Below, in pieces: positions 2,900-39,990 of a DNA stretch of 39,990 bases; within the stretch, counting starts at the first letter, position 1, and each line of letters starts with the position of its first letter. The translations under genes and the position numbers were made by a program. The notes below the pieces were generated by a model. It ran no database searches. It was not told the DNA's origin and worked only from the letters and a program-made list of their open reading frames with translations. Source of the stretch: a virus; IMG/VR virus record IMGVR_UViG_3300040801_000790, positions 1 through 39,990 of that record; one strand, given 5' to 3'.

Positions 2900-2938
2900 T
2901 TCCATATTTGGAACTATAATTTAATTCCTATACATTTG
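2900..2938 (+). promoter_or_regulatory. Promoter P1 (TTCCATATTTGGAA, 20 nt, TACATTTG)
   Basis: -33 TTTG at 2907-2910 embedded in a TTCC..GGAA inverted repeat. Exact 20-nt spacer. -7 TAnnTTTG at 2931-2938. The ATG is 24 nt downstream. Confidence 0.7.
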
Positions 2939-3864: not shown

Positions 3865-3922
3865 AACACGAAAATAAAGATAAGCGTTAAGCGACCCGAT
3901 AGGGTTATCTTTATTTTCTGTT
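3865..3922 (+). terminator. Long A/T-rich hairpin element, copy A (AACA-c-GAAAATAAAGATAA ... TTATCTTTATTTTC-TGTT)
   Basis: A perfect 14-bp helix (3870-3883 / 3905-3918) plus a 4-bp extension. It starts 9 nt after the TAA stop, and the 3' arm is T-rich. Confidence 0.55.
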
Positions 3923-3944
3923 ATAACTTAAACTAACTAATTAT

Positions 3945-5223: not shown

Positions 5224-5238
5224 AAAAAAAAACCACGT

Positions 5239-5276
5239 TCCAAGTTTGGAAAGTAAAATAATAAATTATACATTTA
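5239..5276 (+). promoter_or_regulatory. Promoter P2 (TTCCAAGTTTGGAA, 20 nt, TACATTTA)
   Basis: Same architecture as P1. The -7 box deviates at the last base. Confidence 0.55.
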
Positions 5277-5280
5277 CATC

Positions 5281-5344
5281 ACTACCCAGTAAAACAGCGA
5301 TTAACGCTAAATAACAGCTGGCTACAAGGCGTAGAACTGGGTAG
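5281..5344 (+). other. 5'-leader stem-loop immediately downstream of P2
   Basis: Perfect 10-bp stem: ACTACCCAGT 5281-5290 / ACTGGGTAGT 5335-5344. It lies between the -7 box and the ATG at 5356. Confidence 0.45.
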
Positions 5345-5355
5345 TATTTTAAATT

Positions 5356-5499
5356 ATGAAATGGTGCAAAAAGAAATCCTCATTCACTTTAGAAAATGTG
5401 ATTAAGAGAGTAAAAGAAATAAACGACAAACATCATTATGATGTGGTAAAGTATTTTAAATGTAAAAAGTGTGTTAAATATCATATAGAAAAGTTATGA
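5356..5499 (+). CDS. Small Cys-containing ORF absent from the track (47 aa)
   Basis: Hand translation gives MKWCKKKSSFTLENVIKRVKEINDKHHYDVVKYFKCKKCVKYHIEKL. ATGA overlap with the next gene. Confidence 0.45.
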   Translation: MKWCKKKSSFTLENVIKRVKEINDKHHYDVVKYFKCKKCVKYHIEKL

Positions 5500-5744
5500 C
5501 TGAATTAGAAATAGAATTTGAAGAATCGCTTACTTTTGTGGAGGATAAAGAATCACAAAACAAGACAATAAGAAAACACCTTGAAAGCGGTCAATTAATT
5601 ACTCCTAGATATGCTGATAGAAAGTATGGTATCATGAGATTGGCAGCAAGGATTAAGGACTTAAGAGACTTAGGGTTAAACATTACAACTACTATGGTAA
5701 GTAGAAATGGAAAAAGATTTGCTGAATATAAATTAGAAAAATGA
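5496..5744 (+). CDS. Winged-helix/HTH DNA-binding protein (82 aa)
   Basis: The motif ITPRYADRKYGIMRLAARIKDLRDLG resembles the HTH family that carries the RLAARI..LR signature. Confidence 0.55.
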   Translation: MTELEIEFEESLTFVEDKESQNKTIRKHLESGQLITPRYADRKYGIMRLAARIKDLRDLGLNITTTMVSRNGKRFAEYKLEK

Positions 5745-6605: not shown

Positions 6606-6896
6606 ATGGAAAGACCTAAAGTAGAAAACTACAAAAGAGATAGCAGTAATCCAGTAGTAATAACTAATGATATAAAATCATTCTGTAATGACCAATCTAT
6701 ATATATAGATTACTTAGAAAAAAATCATTCGTATATCAAAGAATTAAAAATTAAATATAAAACTCAATTAAAAACAATTAATGAACTTGTAGGTAATTCA
6801 GAAGATGGTGATACCGCTAAAATACTAGCTGTAAGACGCTTTATAATTTCTTTCATAGATGATTTGGATAAGTTAATTAAAGAAAATAGTAAGTAA
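6606..6896 (+). CDS. Hypothetical protein (96 aa)
   Basis: The track ORF starts at a non-ATG codon (6558). The first ATG is at 6606 (MERPKVENYK...). Confidence 0.55.
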   Translation: MERPKVENYKRDSSNPVVITNDIKSFCNDQSIYIDYLEKNHSYIKELKIKYKTQLKTINELVGNSEDGDTAKILAVRRFIISFIDDLDKLIKENSK

Positions 6897-7028
6897 TCAA
6901 ACCCCACTCTTATCACATGGTAGGGGTGGGTTAAAATAAAGTGAAATAAATGTTGAATAAATACTTAATATACATTATTATTGTAGTGTATTAATCGCTA
7001 GTGCAGAGGCGTAGAAAAATCATTAAAT

Positions 7029-7078
7029 CCATTGCTTAGTAAGGGCTGCACTCCTGAAAAGCAATGGTTTTTTATTTT
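7029..7078 (+). terminator. Intrinsic terminator-like hairpin (CCATTGCTT ... AAGCAATGG followed by TTTTTTATTTT)
   Basis: 9-bp stem 7029-7037 / 7059-7067, with a T-run from 7068. Confidence 0.6.
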
Positions 7079-7112
7079 AAAAGTTACTGGTAAACTTAAA
7101 ACCTTTAATCTT

Positions 7113-7334
7113 ATGGCTAATATAAAACTAGTCTTTCAAGGCACTGAAGAAAGCTCAACAGAAAAAACAGAACTAGAGTGTTTTTTGAATAGTTATGGCA
7201 ATCAAATCACAATATCTTTAATAGACACATCTTGTGGTCAAGATTACAATACACAATTTATATCACTAGATAAAAGCACGGCTATTAAGTTTGCTAAAAC
7301 ACTACGTACTGAAATCAATAAAATACAATCGTAA
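7113..7334 (+). CDS. Hypothetical protein (73 aa)
   Basis: The in-frame ATG at 7113 ([10 protein letters not shown]...) lies downstream of the terminator. The track start at 7032 would run through the hairpin. Confidence 0.55.
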
Positions 7335-10215: not shown

Positions 10216-10250
10216 TACATCTAAAATTATTTTCTTACATGAATAATAAT

Positions 10251-10258
10251 TACCTTTG
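10251..10258 (+). promoter_or_regulatory. Isolated -7-like box TACCTTTG upstream of the XRE gene
   Basis: Perfect TAnnTTTG, identical to the P6 -7 box, but there is no TTTG at the 20-nt spacing upstream. Confidence 0.25.
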
Positions 10259-10279
10259 GTTAAAGTAAACAATATTATT

Positions 10280-10567
10280 ATGAACATAGGGGAATCAATA
10301 AGAATTTTAAGAAAGCGCGAATCAATGAATCAAGAAGAGTTCGCTTCAAGTGTAGGAATAACTCAATCTTACCTTTCGTTAATTGAGAAAGGACACAAGA
10401 AACCAAGCTTAGAAGTTTTACAACAAATGGCGGATATATTGAATGTTCCTCTACCAGTATTGTTTTGGTTTGGGATAGAGAGAGAGGATGTTCCAGAAGA
10501 AAAAAAGTATGCCTTCGATATTTTAAAGCCTTCAATAGACAAGCTAATTAACGAGGTGTTTAATTAA
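10280..10567 (+). CDS. XRE/Cro-family HTH transcriptional regulator (95 aa)
   Basis: IRILRKRESMNQEEFASSVGITQSYLSLIEKGHKKPSLEVLQQMADIL is a canonical HTH_3 pattern. ATG at 10280. Confidence 0.8.
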   Translation: MNIGESIRILRKRESMNQEEFASSVGITQSYLSLIEKGHKKPSLEVLQQMADILNVPLPVLFWFGIEREDVPEEKKYAFDILKPSIDKLINEVFN

Positions 10568-11314: not shown

Positions 11315-11353
11315 TTCCATATTTGGAAAGTAAATAAAGTTTGTATAGTATTG
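11315..11353 (+). promoter_or_regulatory. Promoter P3 (TTCCATATTTGGAA, 20 nt, TAGTATTG)
   Basis: Same architecture as P1. The ATG is 22 nt downstream. Confidence 0.65.
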
Positions 11354-11374: not shown

Positions 11375-11680
11375 ATGAAACACATACACTTAATTCAAAG
11401 AGACAACGTAGACTACTTCAAAAAACAATTGAGTGTAGAAACTTCTAAATCAAATGTAAACCTAAAGCATAGCGATACTATTCACTTAATGTTTGAAGGT
11501 GTAGCTACTTTATTTACTGCAAAAGGAGACGATTTAGAAATGGAGTTAACACCTGGCGAGCGTGAGAAATTCAAATATAGAGAAGATGGATGTTATTATT
11601 TCGATGATAGCGCATTAATTGAAGATTTAAGCAATGATTTGAATTTTGTATTGGAGTTGTATTTTCGGACAAGGGATTAA
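11375..11680 (+). CDS. Hypothetical protein (101 aa)
   Basis: First ORF after P3. Confidence 0.65.
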   Translation: MKHIHLIQRDNVDYFKKQLSVETSKSNVNLKHSDTIHLMFEGVATLFTAKGDDLEMELTPGEREKFKYREDGCYYFDDSALIEDLSNDLNFVLELYFRTRD

Positions 11681-11952: not shown

Positions 11953-12017
11953 AACACGAAAATAAAAGAGCTTGTGCGGTCCGTGCAGCGAAGCGGAATG
12001 GCTTTTTATTTTCTGTT
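11953..12017 (+). terminator. Long A/T-rich hairpin element, copy B (65 nt)
   Basis: AACA-c-GAAAATAAAA-g-AGC ... GCT-TTTTATTTTC-TGTT. It differs at 3 of 65 positions from copy C. Confidence 0.55.
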
Positions 12018-12034
12018 ATATTAAACTAAAAAAC

Positions 12035-12232
12035 ATGAAAGAACAAATAGAAAAAGCACTAGAAGAAGCCCATTAGAAAGTATTTCAAAGAGGGTTAGAA
12101 GTAATGTGTAGTGATAGTATATTGGAGTTAATTTACTCCGCTTCTATAGTCTATAGTGAGGATGATTTTAGGGATTTTACAAGAACACATATAAGAGAAA
12201 GTATAAATCAAGCAATTAAAGAAAGTAAATAG
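12035..12232 (+). pseudogene. Small ORF interrupted by an in-frame TAG (codon 14); alternative 42-aa ORF from ATG 12104
   Basis: Hand translation gives MKEQIEKALEEAH-TAG(12074-12076)-KVFQRGLEVMCSDSILELIYSASIVYSEDDFRDFTRTHIRESINQAIKESK-TAG. ATG 12035 has the canonical AAACTAAAAAAC leader. Confidence 0.35.
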
Positions 12233-12234
12233 TT

Positions 12235-12747
12235 ATGGCAATACATTATTTAAAATCACGAAACAGCGACTACTTAGCTGGTACTGACTTAGAGATATTT
12301 GAATTAGAAGGAAAATCTAAATCATTAACGATTAAAAAAGTAGAGTACCAAGAGAACTTCAAAGTTAACGGAAAGATTAAACCAAAAGGTTTGGTTGCTA
12401 ATTTTCACGAAGAGTACGCAAATCCTTTGATAATCAACCCAACTAATGCACGAATCATTAAATCTTTAACAGGTATAATGGACGCTGAAAAATGGGTTGG
12501 TTTTACGTTGACATTTTGGTTTGATACAAAGGTAGAGATGAAGGTAAGCAAAACGGAAACAATCAAGGGAGGAATAAGAGTTAAATCTGTTAATACAAAT
12601 GGTCTAGTAGCACCTTTAGAAGATATTACCGCTCGTATAGAAGGCTGTACTAACAAAGCTGAATTGATGAATATTTGGCAAGACCTTGACGAGAAGCAAC
12701 AAATAGAATACAAAAATAAATTCACCGAAAAACTAGGTAAGCTATGA
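12235..12747 (+). CDS. Hypothetical protein (170 aa), upstream partner of the nuclease gene
   Basis: ATGA-coupled to the nuclease gene. I recognised no confident motif. A recombination or ssDNA-binding role is only a guess from position. Confidence 0.65.
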   Translation: MAIHYLKSRNSDYLAGTDLEIFELEGKSKSLTIKKVEYQENFKVNGKIKPKGLVANFHEEYANPLIINPTNARIIKSLTGIMDAEKWVGFTLTFWFDTKVEMKVSKTETIKGGIRVKSVNTNGLVAPLEDITARIEGCTNKAELMNIWQDLDEKQQIEYKNKFTEKLGKL

Positions 12748-13655
12748 GATTTGACGACTATTTATTTAGAAGCCATTCAGTAGGTCATATAATAAATGTT
12801 CCAACACCTTTGACGCCTAATCAATTGGAGACTTTAAACGCTTATAATGATAGGTATAATGGTAATGGTAGACCACTAACGCAAAAGCAGCAAGAAGACA
12901 GGATAAGTTTACTACACAAGCAAATAGAAAGCGGTAAGTATAGTATATCTGATGCAACCAAGAAACTACTAAGTCAGCTTGTTTTTGCAAAAAAATACAA
13001 GAGGACTACTGTGTTAAACGCAAATCAAATTAAAAAAGGATTGTCCGAAGAAAAGGAAGCAAGGGATATACTTACAAGGGTATCAGGCTTGTTCTTGACT
13101 GCATCGGAAGAGAGAAAATCTAACAAGTGGGTAACTGGCAAAATAGATATCGAACCAGATGAAGTAATAATAGATATAAAGTCATCTTATAGTTGGGAAT
13201 CATTCTCAAACATCTTACAAGAAAAACCAAATCAAATATACTTGCATCAAGGGGATTCTTACATGGATTTATGGGAGAAAAAACACTTCCTACTTTGTCA
13301 CGTCCTTACAGATACACCTATCAACATTCTACAATCAGAAATAAGAAAAGCAGATTATCATCAAGACTTTATGTCAATAGATGGAAACGTAAGAGACGAA
13401 AAGATTTCAGATGTTAAGCAAATTATAAGCAACCATATATTTTCAAGAAAAGGAATAGAGAATTTTTGTAACTTCTCACCGTTTGCAGAGATTGAATGGT
13501 TTGACGATTTTATAGAGATACCAGAAAAGGATAGGGTTCACATGATAAGTCACGATTACGACCCTGTTAGAATAGAGCAAAGAAACGAGTGTATAAAAAT
13601 ATGTAGAGAGTTTATGAACACAGTAACACCAATAAATAATAGCGACCTTCTCTAA
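12744..13655 (+). CDS. PD-(D/E)xK-type nuclease (YqaJ/lambda-exonuclease-like) (303 aa)
   Basis: GKIDIEPDEVIIDIKSS fits the D...(D/E)xK core. It sits in a replication/recombination context. Confidence 0.45.
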   Translation: MRFDDYLFRSHSVGHIINVPTPLTPNQLETLNAYNDRYNGNGRPLTQKQQEDRISLLHKQIESGKYSISDATKKLLSQLVFAKKYKRTTVLNANQIKKGLSEEKEARDILTRVSGLFLTASEERKSNKWVTGKIDIEPDEVIIDIKSSYSWESFSNILQEKPNQIYLHQGDSYMDLWEKKHFLLCHVLTDTPINILQSEIRKADYHQDFMSIDGNVRDEKISDVKQIISNHIFSRKGIENFCNFSPFAEIEWFDDFIEIPEKDRVHMISHDYDPVRIEQRNECIKICREFMNTVTPINNSDLL

Positions 13656-13683
13656 AAGTATAACAAGTACTATTACTGGAAGA

Positions 13684-13776
13684 GGTAACGGCAAAGTATA
13701 AGGAGAGAAGCCACACCTAGAATTTGGCTATTTATTACAAAACTTTGATGGGCTTTTCACTTTATACAGTGTTACC
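13684..13776 (+). other. 93-nt extended intergenic hairpin
   Basis: GGTAAC 13684-13689 pairs with GTTACC 13771-13776. A 17-position helix (13696-13712 / 13751-13767) has 14 Watson-Crick pairs, 2 G-U pairs and 1 mismatch. The G-U pairs work only in a + strand transcript. Confidence 0.5.
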
Positions 13777-13799
13777 CATCTTTTAAAAATGGCGGACAA

Positions 13800-14102
13800 A
13801 TGAAAGCTAAATTAGATAAGATTAACGGAATTGATTACTTGACTTTTAAGGTGACAGAAGAAATTGGATTGATGCAATTGCCTGTAATAACTAAAGGAAC
13901 AAGACAAGGCACAAATGCTTGGACTTGGAACGGAAGTTTGGAAAGCCCAACACTAAGACCAAGCGTAAGAACAAACTACCACAATGGTAAAGAAATGACT
14001 GAAATACATTACTGGCTTAATGATGGAATTGCTGATTGCTTGGGCGATTGTAAGGACGGAAACGCTGGCAAGAAACTAACTTTATTAGAAGTAGAACAGT
14101 AG
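13800..14102 (+). CDS. DUF6527-like protein (100 aa)
   Basis: AWTWNGSLESPTLRPSV...HYWLNDGIADCLGDC...AGKKLTL resembles the W.fNGd...PT..PS ... G.i.f..D family pattern, from memory. Confidence 0.45.
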   Translation: MKAKLDKINGIDYLTFKVTEEIGLMQLPVITKGTRQGTNAWTWNGSLESPTLRPSVRTNYHNGKEMTEIHYWLNDGIADCLGDCKDGNAGKKLTLLEVEQ

Positions 14103-14139
14103 CCATTTTTTATTGTGGGTAACACAGTTGTATGTGTCA

Positions 14140-14153
14140 TTGAATATATTCAA
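14140..14153. promoter_or_regulatory. Palindrome TTGAATATATTCAA, copy 2
   Basis: The surrounding 18-mer (14138-14155) is identical to the one at 1500-1517. Confidence 0.35.
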
Positions 14154-14218
14154 CAATTAATAAAATAAAAATCAACCAGTTAACAATAAAACAGATGAAT
14201 TAATTTAAGGATATTAGG

Positions 14219-14232
14219 TTGAAAATATTCAA
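14219..14232. promoter_or_regulatory. Palindrome variant TTGAAAATATTCAA, copy 3
   Basis: 13/14 match to the other copies. It lies 79 bp downstream of copy 2 and 18 nt upstream of the ATG at 14250. Confidence 0.3.
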
Positions 14233-14249
14233 CTAAAAATAAATATGTT

Positions 14250-14630
14250 ATGAAGAAATTAAAAGGAATAGACGGAAAACTTGATGACGCATGGAGCTTG
14301 TTAGTAAAATTAAGGGGTGGTAACAAGTGTTCTGTATGTCTTAAGACAAGTCTGCTTAACTCACACCACATTTACAGCAGGTCAAATAAATCTGTGCGTT
14401 GGGATGTGTTAAATGGTATATGTTTATGCGTAGGTTGCCACACGTTCAGCAGTAAGTTTTCGGCACACAAAACACCTACGGAGTTCACGTATTGGCTTGA
14501 AAGAAAGTATGGTAAACCATTCATGGAAAAGTTAATGTTAAAGGCTCATGGGTTAGGTAAGTTTACCCCGTTTGAAAAGGAAATAATGTTGAAAGAATTA
14601 ATGGAAGAAATTAAAACTTATGGGAACTAA
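14250..14630 (+). CDS. NinG/Rap-like HNH-type endonuclease (126 aa)
   Basis: CSVC...NSHHIYSRSNKSVRWDVLNGICLCVGCH matches the NinG/HNH pattern C..C...H...R....RW...N...LC..CH. Confidence 0.5.
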   Translation: MKKLKGIDGKLDDAWSLLVKLRGGNKCSVCLKTSLLNSHHIYSRSNKSVRWDVLNGICLCVGCHTFSSKFSAHKTPTEFTYWLERKYGKPFMEKLMLKAHGLGKFTPFEKEIMLKELMEEIKTYGN

Positions 14631-14988
14631 AAAATGTATGAATGAAGTAAGGATAGCAGCGGACAAGAAGAGGAGAGAAGAAAAAAAGGTTTTTATCGAT
14701 TCTATTAAACCAACATTCTATTCTTTGGAAAATGATATATGCATGATGCTAGGTTTAGATATTAATCTGTTCAAGTCAAGATATCACAAAAGAGAATACG
14801 CAGACGGTAGAGCGATGTTGTTTGCAATCATGAGACCATTAACAAAGGATGTTATAGGGTTAAAATTGCTAGGCGGTATACACCGAAAAGGATACGATCA
14901 CTCAACGCTTAAAACAGCTCTAAAGAAACACGAGGATTTGTACGGTAGTGATAAAAGATATACTCAAATGTTTGATTTATTAAAGTAA
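14620..14988 (+). CDS. DnaA C-terminal-domain-like HTH protein (122 aa)
   Basis: REYADGRAMLFAIMRPLT...LGGIHRKGYDHSTLKTALKKHEDL parallels the DnaA domain IV pattern (R...aR.iamyL.r.lt...IG..f...dHsTV.ha..k). Confidence 0.4.
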   Translation: MGTKKCMNEVRIAADKKRREEKKVFIDSIKPTFYSLENDICMMLGLDINLFKSRYHKREYADGRAMLFAIMRPLTKDVIGLKLLGGIHRKGYDHSTLKTALKKHEDLYGSDKRYTQMFDLLK

Positions 14989-15134
14989 TGCCCAACAGTT
15001 ACGACAAGCCATTAACAGCACAACAGTTCTACGATAGCATTAAAGACAAAGATTCTTACTATTGGAAAACATCAGGAAGGCATACATATGCTGTAATGCT
15101 GGATTGGGAGAAAAATAAAAAGAAGAAAAAATAG
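14988..15134 (+). CDS. Small ORF absent from the track (48 aa, MPNSYDKPLTAQQFYDSIKDKDSYYWK...)
   Basis: Hand-translated. TAATG overlap with the upstream gene. Its stop abuts promoter P4. Confidence 0.4.
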   Translation: MPNSYDKPLTAQQFYDSIKDKDSYYWKTSGRHTYAVMLDWEKNKKKKK

Positions 15135-15173
15135 TTCCATATTTGGAAGGTAAATAAATTATAGTTAGTATTG
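15135..15173 (+). promoter_or_regulatory. Promoter P4 (TTCCATATTTGGAA, 20 nt, TAGTATTG)
   Basis: Same architecture as P1. The ATG is 22 nt downstream. Confidence 0.65.
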
Positions 15174-15194: not shown

Positions 15195-15398
15195 ATGAAT
15201 TACAAATTACTAGGCTTAATAATATGCTTACTTTCTGGAATAGTTTCCTCGGTTGGTTACTTCTTTATCTTTAAAAATATGACAATGCAACAATTAGAAT
15301 TAATAGTTTACTCGGTATTACTTATGATAACAATTCCTTTTGCAATTAAAGCGGTTAGGGATTTGATAAAGGAAGGGTTTGACCATTGGAAGGTTTAA
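15195..15398 (+). CDS. Small two-TM membrane protein (67 aa)
   Basis: Two hydrophobic segments: LLGLIICLLSGIVSSVGYFFIF and LIVYSVLLMITIPFAI. Confidence 0.6.
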   Translation: MNYKLLGLIICLLSGIVSSVGYFFIFKNMTMQQLELIVYSVLLMITIPFAIKAVRDLIKEGFDHWKV

Positions 15399-16088: not shown

Positions 16089-16153
16089 AACACGAAAATA
16101 AAAGAGCTTGTGCGTTCCGTGTATCGAAGCGGAATGGCTTTTTATTTTCTGTT
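16089..16153 (+). terminator. Long A/T-rich hairpin element, copy C (65 nt)
   Basis: Same arms as copy B, differing at 3 of 65 positions. It lies between a TAG stop and promoter P5. Confidence 0.55.
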
Positions 16154-16170
16154 ATCATTAAAATAATTAC

Positions 16171-16209
16171 TTCCATATTTGGAAGCGATAAGAATAAATA
16201 GTAGTATTG
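16171..16209 (+). promoter_or_regulatory. Promoter P5 (TTCCATATTTGGAA, 20 nt, TAGTATTG), heading the packaging/morphogenesis block
   Basis: Same architecture as P1. The ATG is 23 nt downstream. Confidence 0.65.
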
Positions 16210-16231: not shown

Positions 16232-16540
16232 ATGAAATTCAAAGGAAAAGTAACTCATGTAACACCTACAGAAAATGGTGAGGACAAAAAAGGTAATCAA
16301 ACTATGAAGAACAACTTCGTAGTAGAAGAAACAGAAGGGAAATACCCTAGCAAAATTCTAATCAACCAGTACAAGAGCGGTGAACACGTTCAATACTTTA
16401 AAGAAGTTAACGTTGGTGAGGTGGTCGAGGTTGAATACTCTACAACAGTAAGCGAGTACAATGGTAAACACTACGGAAACAATAACATGTTCAGATTAGA
16501 AGTAATTGAAAAAGCTGACTTTATAGACGCTCCTTACTAA
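16232..16540 (+). CDS. DUF3127-like small OB-fold protein (102 aa)
   Basis: MKFKGKVTHVTP...FVVEETEGKYPSKILI...GEVVEVEYSTTVSEYNGKHYGNNNMFRLEVI mirrors the DUF3127 layout seen in Bacteroidota, from memory. Confidence 0.5.
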   Translation: MKFKGKVTHVTPTENGEDKKGNQTMKNNFVVEETEGKYPSKILINQYKSGEHVQYFKEVNVGEVVEVEYSTTVSEYNGKHYGNNNMFRLEVIEKADFIDAPY

Positions 16541-28694: not shown

Positions 28695-29672
28695 ATGGCA
28701 GTAACGGTAGATTTAGATTATACATACAATGGGCAAGAGGTCTTTGATGTTCTCTTAGAACCAGCATTACAGAACGAGGACATCTTAAAGATGTTTAACG
28801 TTCTAACAAACATTCGCTCAAAGCGACAAATGATAACAGCCGACCAGTTCGGTAGGGTTTCATTTGCTGGGGATGGTACTTGCGATATTCCAACACCTGT
28901 AGGAAGTACCGTGTTAAAAAACAGAACGCTTGAAACAGGGGAGGTACAAATTTACATGACTCAATGCGCGAGAGAATTTTCCGAAGTTCTAGCAGAAGAG
29001 GCATTGAATACAGGGATTGAAATATATGACCTTTCACAAACTGAAATCAATAACAAAATAATTCTTCCATTGTTACAAGAAGCAGCGAAGAGAGATTTAT
29101 TTTACTTGATAAGCTTCGGTGATTTAGATAGTGCTGATGAGTTACTTTCAGCTGCTCATGGCTTATGGCCGACATTAATTGACGGTGTTGATGACTATAC
29201 TGTTATTGATGCAGAAGTTACATTTAACGCTATACTTGAAGAAGATGAAGCTTTAGAGGCATTTGAAAAAATGTGGTCACTTGCCCCTCAGAAGTTAAAG
29301 GCAATGAAAGACAAGATTGTTCTTGCGGTTACTGGTAGCTTATATGACAACTATGAGAAGTCGTTAAGAGACAAGGGGATAGACAACGGTTGGACAAGAC
29401 TACAAGAAGGTACTCCAAGCTTGAAATTCAACGGAATTGAAGTAGTTCCAATGAGAGGATGGGATAATGGAATCGCAGAATTTGAACTTGATAATCCTCA
29501 CAGAGCATTGTTGACGGTAAAAGAAAATCATTACATCGGAGTTGAGGACATGAAGAAAACAGCTACTCTAAGCTTTTTCTATGATAGAAATTCTCGATTA
29601 AACAAATACGAGGGTAGATACCGAGTAGGTTATCAGTTTGTTCATAAGGATTTACAGGTAATAGCTTACTAA
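28695..29672 (+). CDS. Major capsid protein (325 aa)
   Basis: It lies directly after the protease/scaffold, and its size and composition are typical of HK97-fold capsid proteins. This is a positional inference. Confidence 0.65.
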   Translation: MAVTVDLDYTYNGQEVFDVLLEPALQNEDILKMFNVLTNIRSKRQMITADQFGRVSFAGDGTCDIPTPVGSTVLKNRTLETGEVQIYMTQCAREFSEVLAEEALNTGIEIYDLSQTEINNKIILPLLQEAAKRDLFYLISFGDLDSADELLSAAHGLWPTLIDGVDDYTVIDAEVTFNAILEEDEALEAFEKMWSLAPQKLKAMKDKIVLAVTGSLYDNYEKSLRDKGIDNGWTRLQEGTPSLKFNGIEVVPMRGWDNGIAEFELDNPHRALLTVKENHYIGVEDMKKTATLSFFYDRNSRLNKYEGRYRVGYQFVHKDLQVIAY

Positions 29673-30217
29673 TGGGGTGTAGATTAACAGGAGGTATCAT
29701 CGCAGAGTGCGATGACCTCATACAAATTGGGGGTCTGTATAAGAAATCATGGCTTGGTAACGTAGAAGACTTGACGTTAGATTATGATGAAGACGGTTAT
29801 GTTAATGACATCACCATGGCAGAGTACGGGTTTCTTTACGCTTTTGAAAGCAAGAAGAACAGTTTTAGTGCTGGACACTCCACTGGTGACTCTGGGGCAG
29901 GGGCTAATAAATTCTTTATACACACAGGGGTATTAAAGCTATTCCCTAACACACCAGCAGAAGACGAGGCGATAAAAGACCTACTAGTTTCTAGTGTGTT
30001 TATGATTGTTAAGACTCAGAATGATAAGTTTTTAATCTACGGTGCTAAGAATGGTATGAATGCGGTTACTGAGCAGAACTCAGGACAAGAGGCTGGCAGC
30101 GACATCACAGAGATTGTAACACTTAAGGGCGAAGAGAAAACTAAGCCTTTGAGAATCAAGATAGGCGCGGATGCAGCAGCAACAGAGGCGGTGCTTGATG
30201 GGTTGCTAGAAGCATAA
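29672..30217 (+). CDS. Virion protein, possibly major tail/tube protein (181 aa)
   Basis: Coupled to the capsid gene and followed by a strong terminator, which suggests high expression. The sequence layout resembles small tail tube proteins. Uncertain. Confidence 0.35.
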   Translation: MGCRLTGGIIAECDDLIQIGGLYKKSWLGNVEDLTLDYDEDGYVNDITMAEYGFLYAFESKKNSFSAGHSTGDSGAGANKFFIHTGVLKLFPNTPAEDEAIKDLLVSSVFMIVKTQNDKFLIYGAKNGMNAVTEQNSGQEAGSDITEIVTLKGEEKTKPLRIKIGADAAATEAVLDGLLEA

Positions 30218-30238
30218 TTAAAAAAAACAAAATAAATG

Positions 30239-30278
30239 AAAGGCTATGTATTAATTTATGTAGCCTTTTTGTATTTTT
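30239..30278 (+). terminator. Rho-independent terminator
   Basis: AAAGGCTA 30239-30246 pairs with TAGCCTTT 30261-30268, followed by TTGTATTTTT. Confidence 0.7.
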
Positions 30279-37950: not shown

Positions 37951-37989
37951 TTCCTTATTTGGAAAGCATTTTTATTTAGTTTACCTTTG
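37951..37989 (+). promoter_or_regulatory. Promoter P6 (TTCCTTATTTGGAA, 20 nt, TACCTTTG), heading the early region
   Basis: Same architecture as P1, with a perfect TAnnTTTG. The ATG is 60 nt downstream. Confidence 0.65.
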
Positions 37990-38048: not shown

Positions 38049-38246
38049 ATGAAAAAAGACAAGAGAATAGAGAAGATGCAAAACTTCTTCGATATGGGAA
38101 TAAAGAAAACGGTATTCGCTAAAAAGATTAATGTGTCAAGGCAACACATAAACTGGCTATTGAGAACTAACGGAACAGAAGATTTTAGAATGTCGGGTAG
38201 TTTGTGGGATAAGATTGACAAAGGAATGAAGAGCTATAAGGCTTAA
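38049..38246 (+). CDS. Small HTH DNA-binding protein (Cro-like) (65 aa)
   Basis: KTVFAKKINVSRQHINWLL is an HTH motif. It is the first gene after P6. Confidence 0.55.
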   Translation: MKKDKRIEKMQNFFDMGIKKTVFAKKINVSRQHINWLLRTNGTEDFRMSGSLWDKIDKGMKSYKA

Positions 38247-39711: not shown

Positions 39712-39921
39712 ATGAATAACGAAAATTGGATTGAAAGCAGTAATCCACCAAAACCAAACACACAATGCAAGGCAAAAACACCTGCTGGAACTGATGAAGT
39801 TGGACAGGCTTGGTTTGATGGAAAAAAATGGTGGAACTGGGAACAAGGTTCAAATGTAAAATTTGGATTGAAAGATGGTTGGGTAACGCACTACATTCCT
39901 TTATTTGAAAGAACAGAGTGA
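39712..39921 (+). CDS. Hypothetical Trp-rich protein (69 aa); its 3' end lies in the terminal repeat
   Basis: ATG ORF. The last 48 nt are duplicated at 1..48. Confidence 0.6.
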   Translation: MNNENWIESSNPPKPNTQCKAKTPAGTDEVGQAWFDGKKWWNWEQGSNVKFGLKDGWVTHYIPLFERTE

Positions 39922-39990
39922 GCGTATGTGCTACAACGAGTTCGGGCTATGAGCCTGTACTTGTATGGCTTATAGCCCGTGTTGTAGGTA
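39874..39990. repeat. Terminal direct repeat, copy 2 (identical to 1..117)
   Basis: 117/117 identity with the window start. Confidence 0.95.

Follow-up and report, generated by a model that had tools for sequence, protein, structure and literature searches.

In IMG/VR virus record IMGVR_UViG_3300040801_000790, of which we analysed positions 1 to 39,990 (the window, that is, the whole 39,990-nt stretch), we found six promoter-like sites, P1 to P6, built to one plan: a 14-bp inverted repeat, TTCCA-N4-TGGAA in its common form, laid over the -33 element of a promoter of the Bacteroidota type. Our preferred explanation, to which we give a probability of about 0.5, is that these sites are host sigma-A promoters whose -33 element lies inside an operator for a dimeric phage protein of the helix-turn-helix (HTH) or winged-helix (wHTH) kind, the best candidate being a small protein with an HTH_39 domain. 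Beyond the initial annotation of this DNA, which had described the six sites, the analysis adds that their -7 boxes form two classes, that orthologous copies exist in a relative, and that the arms of the repeat are not a general requirement of the host.

Searching for TTCCNNNTTTGGAA with zero mismatches, we obtained exactly six copies, all on the + strand (starts in Table 1). Upon allowing up to one mismatch, 13 matches were observed against a mean of 1.2 in 100 dinucleotide shuffles, none of which reached 13; the extra one-mismatch matches were reverse reads of the same near-palindromes and two near-misses in coding regions. The composite pattern TTCC-N3-TTTGGAA-N17-TA-N3-TT returned the same six zero-mismatch matches and no others, and in the shuffles its mean count was 0.5 even at up to two mismatches. 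The distance from the TTTG to the -7 box was 20 nt in six of six window copies and in three of three copies from the relative described below. Each of the six cores falls in a gap that separates two + strand genes, and the motif is the most repeated 9-mer family among intergenic gaps; as P4 begins right after the stop codon of gene 14988-15134, its upstream flank is coding. These scans and shuffles bear out the earlier claim of a six-copy, intergenic, + strand family with an exact 20-nt spacing, as well as five of the six coordinates given for it, P2 starting at 5238 rather than 5239. Information content, taken over the six copies and the three from the relative, was restricted to the 14-mer and to the TA...TTG of the box, with the 17-nt spacer and the flanks varying. 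The dyad has a 5+4+5 form in five copies and 4 bp in P6, and is longest in P2 (6+2+6, TTCCAA-GT-TTGGAA).

Promoters of the Bacteroidota primary sigma factor, sigma-ABfr, reportedly combine a -33 TTTG with a -7 TAnnTTTG (work ascribed to Bayley in 2000, Vingadassalom in 2005 and Chen in 2007), and the spacing from the TTTG to the -7 element is said, after Bayley, to be usually 19-21 nt. The -33/-7 consensus is also given for Bacteroidota in PMC6847099 (Baez 2019) and PMC2483708, and promoter layout and position numbering are given in PMC9723704 as well. In Flavobacterium johnsoniae, the box reads T-12 A-11 .. T-8 T-7 T-6 G-5, with the start site 4-5 nt past it; G is virtually missing at -10 and -9, hence TAHHTTTG, and the -33 signal is weak (PMC6847099). 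On this scale, with the G of the box set to -5, the window copies place the TTTG at -36..-33, the box at -12..-5 and the dyad at -43..-30 (centre -36.5). The spacing of every copy falls within the usual 19-21 nt, and location and orientation are those of a promoter throughout.

The 8-mers that follow the 14-mer after 17 nt fall into two classes. Class A (P6, P1 and P2) reads TAC(A/C)TTT(G/A) and is near consensus: TACATTTG at P1 and TACCTTTG at P6 match TAnnTTTG in full, and TACATTTA at P2 lacks the G at -5. Class B (P3, P4 and P5) is invariably TAGTATTG, with a G at -10 and an A at the otherwise nearly invariant T-8, both disfavoured in TAHHTTTG, and it retains the TA and the TTG at the correct spacing. 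The box had initially been called TAnnTTTG-like, a label that lumps class A with an off-consensus second class. Predicted leaders at four sites (P1, P3, P4 and P5) are 17-19 nt long, A-rich and devoid of a Shine-Dalgarno (SD) motif; short leaders had been expected at four copies, and the distance from box end to ATG is 21-23 nt there instead of 22-24 nt. The proposed Bacteroidota -33/-7 geometry with short, here A-rich, leaders stands, the layout being that of PMC6847099 and PMC2483708. Judged from these features, the sites are very likely sigma-A-type promoters, and the 3' TTG of the box is a Bacteroidota feature and not one of sigma-70.

Other assignments fitted less well. As a sigma-70 promoter, TTGGAA-17-TAGTAT scores only 8/12, under the scan threshold, and leaves the conserved 3' TTG unexplained; E. 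coli-type sigma-70 matches showed no enrichment in the genome. No copy has a GC 10 nt after GG, as in sigma-54 promoters (GG-N10-GC at -24/-12), nor the CGT box of extracytoplasmic function (ECF) promoters (CGT-containing -10, GGAAC-type -35). Comparing the motifs with SM4-SM6 by their descriptions in PMC9723704, we found that the class B box differs from the SM5 variant (TAnnTTGY) of Flavobacterium psychrophilum. A promoter for a single-subunit phage RNA polymerase (RNAP) was set aside, the genome having no gene for such an enzyme, and the 14-mer, with only 5 bp and no U-tract on the + strand, was rejected as an RNA hairpin or terminator. We found no published description of the motif or of flavobacterial phage promoter classes, and in ~334 kb of Bacteroidota loci, an underpowered sample, the sequence preceding TAHHTTTG boxes showed no sign of an extended -33 element at host level.

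A Flavobacteriaceae-type host within the Bacteroidota is a reasonable, though indirect, assignment, made from terminase homologues, DNA matches to Flavobacteriaceae phages and the near-absence of SD motifs. Homologues of the large terminase subunit (TerL) with 45-58% identity were found in Flavobacterium, Xanthomarina, Aquimarina, Leeuwenhoekiella and other Flavobacteriia genomes, prophages included, and the DNA matches to isolated phages were short and confined to Olleya phage Harreka_1 and Flavobacterium phage morran9-1. Only 3 genes out of 69 have an SD-like motif, and the sequence ahead of the genes is rich in A at positions -13..-11 and -6/-5, the same pattern of few SD motifs and A-rich upstream sequence that has been described for Flavobacterium (PMC6847099). 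The host had originally been inferred from the promoter consensus, and the prophage terminases, the Olleya and Flavobacterium phage matches and the SD count all agree with it.

The sole relative found with the motif family is contig_31631 of ENA ERZ25039505 (loci L008 and L038; Logan copy L039), which was examined over contig positions 13777-41947 (~28 kb). It is a mosaic that shares TerL (57%), HTH_39 (partial view), MazG (81%), a non-coding block, the P3 gene, the NinG module, the P4 open reading frame (ORF) and the terminator-P5 module with the window, and little else in the sampled regions. Orthologous class B copies lie at L038:5813 (P3), L038:12340 (P4, reading CTCC...) and L038:12684 (P5, upstream of an SSB gene). 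Across the three ortholog pairs, 1 of 66 positions had changed in the 14-mer and -7 box versus 8 of 51 in the spacers (Fisher p=0.01), and 1 of 24 in the arms alone versus 28 of 111 in the spacer plus upstream flank (p=0.026); there were no indels, the spacing was identical, and the TAGTATTG box was unchanged in all six class B copies of the two phages. Free drift of the arms with loss of the spacing, which the initial annotation had named as the outcome that would speak against it, is therefore not what was found: arms and spacing are kept in this relative while the spacers diverge.

Outside this pair, the family was not encountered. The motif was absent from 24 TerL-related loci of GTDB genomes, from three contigs carrying NinG-like homologues (72-74% identity) and from Olleya phage Harreka_1, and neither motif nor dyad was present in a distant HTH_39-bearing phage contig, whose GC content of 54% differs from that of the window. 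Promoter-pattern scans of IMG/VR and the JGI metagenomes returned one chance-like match and then zero, conserved sRNA-like and terminator strings had zero matches in IMG/VR, and a MazG-anchored search of JGI metagenomes also gave zero. The relative itself has ordinary promoter-like sites without arms (TATATTTG, TAACTTTG and TAAATTTG). The scan of related phages that had been proposed thus yielded orthologous copies in one relative and none in any other flavobacterial phage or prophage sampled. As the arms are lacking in those phages and prophages and at the arm-less sites of the relative, they are not a general host requirement and, by these comparisons, appear as a lineage-specific feature.

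The dyad itself argues for a protein operator. Perfect 5-4-5 palindromes recur in the window with only two arms, TTCCA (five promoter copies, the most frequent such arm in the genome) and TTGAA (four copies); TTCCA-N4-TGGAA is perfect in five of the six promoter copies and does not occur away from promoters. Upstream of the TTTG, the TCC at -42..-40 is invariant in nine of nine copies and not A/T-rich, a position that would not be expected for an A/T-rich UP-type contact and is more likely a half-site of a protein operator. Taken together with the rest, we give the TTCCA dyad close to, or somewhat under, an even chance of being a regulator site. Its best candidate binder, we infer, is the 82-aa HTH_39 protein encoded in the P2 operon. 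Its AlphaFold model (predicted local distance difference test, pLDDT, 91) shows a long N-terminal helix and a winged helix, its Foldseek neighbours are dimeric wHTH regulators (such as Stf76, PadR and MarR) with none at E<=0.001, and it is present in the relative, which also has the dyad, with 78% identity across 27 visible residues. The promoter ahead of its gene, P2, is moreover the one with the longest dyad.

A second candidate regulator is a 95-aa XRE/Cro-type HTH protein; neither this protein nor the TTGAA dyad was detected in the sampled ~28 kb of the relative. The region upstream of its gene (10216-10279) holds a -7 box, TACCTTTG, at 10251-10258, 21 nt from the gene, with no -33 TTTG and no dyad, and the XRE gene may therefore have its own, differently controlled promoter. 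The TTGAA dyads belong to a 97-nt repeat (70% identity) at 1500-1596 and 14138-14234, in which two perfect 5-4-5 dyads, TTGAATATATTCAA and TTGAA(A/T)AT(A/T)TTCAA, lie 79 bp apart (starts 1502/1581 and 14140/14219); one copy lies upstream of and runs into gene 1517-1756, and the other occupies the gap before the NinG-like gene. These dyads make up a second operator-like family and are possibly a target of the XRE protein.

Several points weigh against an operator. The left arm varies (TTCCT in P6, CTCCA in the relative) and TTTGGAA never changes, an invariance no less compatible with a contact of the polymerase than with a symmetric dimer. As an inner TAT is common to all copies, a pattern of conserved arms around a free centre is only weakly seen, and the chance of a 5-bp dyad in the consensus, ~1e-3 per register, becomes modest once alternative registers are allowed. 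The structural matches of HTH_39 are to generic winged-helix proteins only, and since the one relative is a mosaic that was partly sampled, the co-occurrence of regulator and site is an incomplete argument with n=2. It would also be unusual for all promoters, the late one included, to carry a repressor site. The dyad could instead be an extended -33 element that duplication or gene conversion has kept alike.

That last point leads to the chief alternative, possible but in our view rather unlikely, in which the sites are plain strong promoters with no regulator: the 14-mer would be a phage-specific extended -33 element contacted by sigma region 4, the C-terminal domain of the alpha subunit (alpha-CTD) or both, the dyad would be incidental, and duplication or recombination of promoter cassettes would keep the copies alike. 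Early promoter families of phages, such as those of T4 and T5, are often more conserved than the host consensus. The nine of nine invariant TTTGGAA beside a left arm that varies at two positions, and the fixed register to the -7 box, are what a polymerase contact predicts; P3, P4 and P5 share extended similarity (the 82-nt repeat family D1) and their cassettes are mobile between phages; and, with the host -33 signal weak (PMC6847099), a strong upstream element could offset the off-consensus TAGTATTG. What argues against plain promoters is that the upstream half, with its invariant TCC, is exactly complementary to the downstream one and unlike an A/T-rich UP element, that both this genome and the relative have promoter-like sites lacking the arms, and that, this relative apart, the arms were seen in no related phage or prophage sampled.

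A phage-redirected polymerase, in which a phage protein replaces or remodels sigma region 4, as AsiA/MotA do in T4, or a phage sigma factor that escaped recognition reads the combination of dyad and TAGTATTG, so that the TTTG is not a host -33 element at all, strikes us as improbable. The non-consensus TAGTATTG is invariant in six of six copies in two phages, the conserved element sits exactly at the site of sigma region 4, and many early proteins lack a detectable function. However, scans of the proteins against Pfam, PHROGs and NCBIfam revealed no sigma, RNAP, AsiA, MotA or Mor-like domain; the presumptive early promoters bear the same 14-mer, and at least one of them has to be usable by host polymerase in its unmodified state; the boxes of class A match the host consensus almost perfectly; and the layout is unlike sigma-54 (-24/-12), ECF (CGT box) or SM5 promoters. 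Finally, it is very improbable that the sites are not primarily promoters and serve as boundary or linker joints for module exchange, or as sites for replication or packaging proteins: promoter and terminator modules do flank segments exchanged with the mosaic relative, and the genome has further repeat and dyad families, but the strict single orientation, the 21-23 nt to start codons at four copies, the host-type -7 box at exact spacing, the terminator directly upstream and a conservation that is box-specific instead of covering whole segments all speak otherwise, and any use as linkers would come second to the role as promoters.

Under our preferred explanation of host promoters with an embedded operator, host RNA polymerase carrying the Bacteroidota primary sigma factor would read all six promoters, and the 14-bp dyad over the -33 element would be bound by a small dimeric phage-encoded HTH or wHTH protein. 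Lying squarely on the -33 element, the dyad would let one protein gate every phage promoter, and as its centre falls on that element, occupancy should compete with or remodel the contact of sigma region 4. Such control resembles the repressor or appropriation type more closely than a class II activator. The two classes probably respond differently: class A would fire on naked host polymerase and then be damped, whereas class B would rely more on the upstream element and the bound protein, and would drive two promoter-gene-terminator cassettes plus the SSB, packaging and morphogenesis operon. A more specific version, in which the HTH_39 dimer acts as a bifunctional switch that shuts P6, P1 and P2 (its own promoter included) and enables the TAGTATTG promoters P3, P4 and P5, is doubtful.

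The arrangement may be compared with known systems. Like sigma-ABfr promoters, the sites have TA at -12/-11, TTG at -7..-5, TTTG 20 nt upstream and short A-rich SD-less leaders, in a Flavobacteriaceae phage context; unlike host promoters, which have a weak -33 element and no TTCC/GGAA flanks, they carry a nearly invariant 14-mer and, in three of six copies, a TAGTATTG box that TAHHTTTG disfavours. In the MotA box promoters of T4 and the Mor/C promoters of Mu, a phage-specific element lies at -35, and the Mu element has dyad symmetry overlapping -35. These share with the window a host-type downstream element joined to a conserved phage-specific upstream element at or over -35/-33, and their effectors are small phage HTH proteins, of which the window also encodes two. 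By contrast, the dyad in the window holds a perfect host -33 TTTG and also sits on presumptive early promoters, and the window yielded no homologue of MotA, AsiA, Mor or C, any activator role here being putative. Cro/CI operators overlap promoters in lambda, 434 and P22, and those of 434 are 14-bp dyads. The likeness here is a 14-bp, short-armed dyad with an A/T-rich centre over the upstream promoter element, in a genome that encodes an XRE and a winged-helix protein; the differences are that the window has one site per promoter instead of tandem sites, on all promoters including the late one, and that it has no divergent repressor gene, no integrase and genes on one strand only. Morons, in the sense of Juhala and Hendrix, are phage-borne cassettes of promoter, gene and terminator. 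Two units of the window are likewise self-contained, namely P4 followed by the ORF for a 67-aa membrane protein, and P3 followed by two small genes and a terminator module; they have 80-88% DNA identity to an otherwise divergent phage, but they share the promoter type of the main late operon, whereas moron promoters are independent of the phage programme.

Table 1. Promoters, terminator modules and candidate regulator genes in the window; predicted starts are approximate
Feature	Coordinates	Strand	Composition	Predicted start	Context
P6, class A	37951..37989	+	TTCCTTATTTGGAA-N17-TACCTTTG	~37994	gene at 38049 after a 55-nt leader; box-to-gene gap 59 nt
P1, class A	2900..2938	+	TTCCATATTTGGAA-N17-TACATTTG	~2943	ATG at 2962, 23 nt past box
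P2, class A	5238..5276	+	TTCCAAGTTTGGAA-N17-TACATTTA	~5281	
P3, class B	11315..11353	+	TTCCATATTTGGAA-N17-TAGTATTG	~11358	ATG at 11375, 21 nt past box
P4, class B	15135..15173	+	TTCCATATTTGGAA-N17-TAGTATTG	~15178	
P5, class B	16171..16209	+	TTCCATATTTGGAA-N17-TAGTATTG	~16214	ATG at 16232
Terminator module	16089..16155	+	A-rich arm, hairpin, U-rich arm		just upstream of P5
Terminator module, second copy	11953..12019	+	96% identical to 16089-16155		closes P3 unit
Terminator module, third copy	3865-3925		paralogous		
HTH_39 (Pfam) winged-helix protein	5496..5744	+	82 aa		P2 operon
XRE/Cro-type HTH protein	10280..10567	+	95 aa		second candidate regulator

Turning to the individual sites, P6 is located downstream of the final late gene; the block of ~17 small orphan genes that it heads spans the circular junction and extends to 2842, and it is plausibly an early promoter. 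Gaps in the orphan block behind it (346-462, 754-852, 1394-1516, 39922-39990 and others) lack a -7 box and hold long stable hairpins with common CTACAACG/TGTTGTAG feet (z -4.2, -2.9, -5.3 and -4.95), which are reminiscent of the RNase III processing sites between early genes of T7. P1 heads small genes and a 308-aa protein without known function. Downstream of P2 follow, in order, an uncalled 47-codon Cys-rich ORF (79 nt after it), HTH_39, MazG and replication genes. The P2 leader (5281-5345) folds from the predicted start into a branched hairpin with a 10-bp closing stem (dG -23, z -3.84), followed by AUUUUAAAUU and the ATG of the 47-codon ORF (5356-5499; CxxK...CxxC), which overlaps the start of HTH_39; the leader could be an attenuator or another regulatory leader.

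Among the class B sites, P3 precedes two small genes and then a terminator module. P4 heads a moron-like cassette with the 67-aa ORF 15195-15398, which is uncalled in public annotations, has two predicted hydrophobic (transmembrane) segments and is 77.6% conserved at the amino-acid level in the relative, and whose product looks like a moron-type small membrane protein. Homology to the relative runs from ~10 nt upstream of the dyad up to the stop codon, a moron-like behaviour of the cassette. P5 lies 16 nt downstream of a terminator module and precedes an SSB-like DUF3127 gene, then the small terminase subunit (TerS), TerL and ~21 kb of structural genes with no inner copy of the motif, confirming the earlier assignment of P5 as the head of the packaging and morphogenesis block.

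The terminator modules form a family, AACACGAAAATAAAGA-[variable hairpin]-TTTATTTTCTGTTAT, with base pairing between the A-rich and the U-rich arm (z -5.5, -2.2 and -4.3). A module at L038:12602-12674 precedes the P5 orthologue in the relative, and modules and promoters together bracket segments swapped with it. Genes 12104-15134 (~3 kb), behind the module that closes the P3 unit, have no recognisable promoter, and the window has two arm-less promoter-like sites, one in front of the XRE gene at 10251 (TACCTTTG) and the other at 6953-6983. Given the three terminator copies, the promoterless ~3 kb and these arm-less sites, the initial division of the genome into six transcription units is too simple.

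The second arm-less site, TTGAAT-N17-TATTATTG, belongs to a non-coding block (6893-7078; L038:1480-1665 in the relative) that is 94.6% identical between the two phages, exceeding the flanking genes, and that also has a terminator hairpin with U6 at ~7029-7073. The block, for which Rfam gave no match, is a candidate small RNA (sRNA) of ~90 nt; it has AGGCGTAGAA in common with the P2 leader, and it is overlapped by ORF 7032-7334 (TTG start), whose 5' end may be mis-called. Within the long late operon, a strong hairpin (13 bp) with a T-run at 30238-30269, right after gene 29672-30217, may by its position be an attenuating terminator.

At the level of the genome, an exact 117-bp terminal direct repeat (1-117 and 39874-39990; unique length ~39.87 kb) indicates that the window is a genome either assembled as a circle or bearing a terminal redundancy, and NCBI contig CAZXIS010000018.1 is the same genome, circularly permuted. 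Every called gene lies on the + strand. The gene set (replication initiator, primase/helicase, exonuclease, NinG-like protein, SSB-like DUF3127, TerS, TerL, portal, protease and tape-measure) fits a siphovirus-like phage, with no integrase detected; we take it to be a virulent-looking flavobacterial siphophage. Among INPHARED phages, no close relative was found (megablast and distant blastn of large parts gave no matches, or matches of 60-80 nt only); a tblastn search with the 503-aa structural protein had no match, and with TerL gave matches all below 41% identity, to enterobacterial and other phages. Rfam and tRNA scans of the window returned nothing.

How phages of Bacteroidota and Flavobacteriia control transcription has hardly been studied, and the promoters of their hosts are unlike the E. 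coli paradigm. In the present genome, six promoters that share a 14-bp dyad over the -33 element and fall into two classes by the -7 box alone, together with two candidate regulators, make up a small set amenable to testing. Even if the dyad were only an extended -33 element, it would be informative on the upstream contacts of a divergent sigma factor. If the sites are confirmed, they would provide portable strong or regulated promoters for flavobacterial genetics and a model of phage gene timing on the sigma-ABfr polymerase, and if the HTH_39 switch is true, it would be the first-described temporal control for Bacteroidota phages, built on the -33/-7 architecture.

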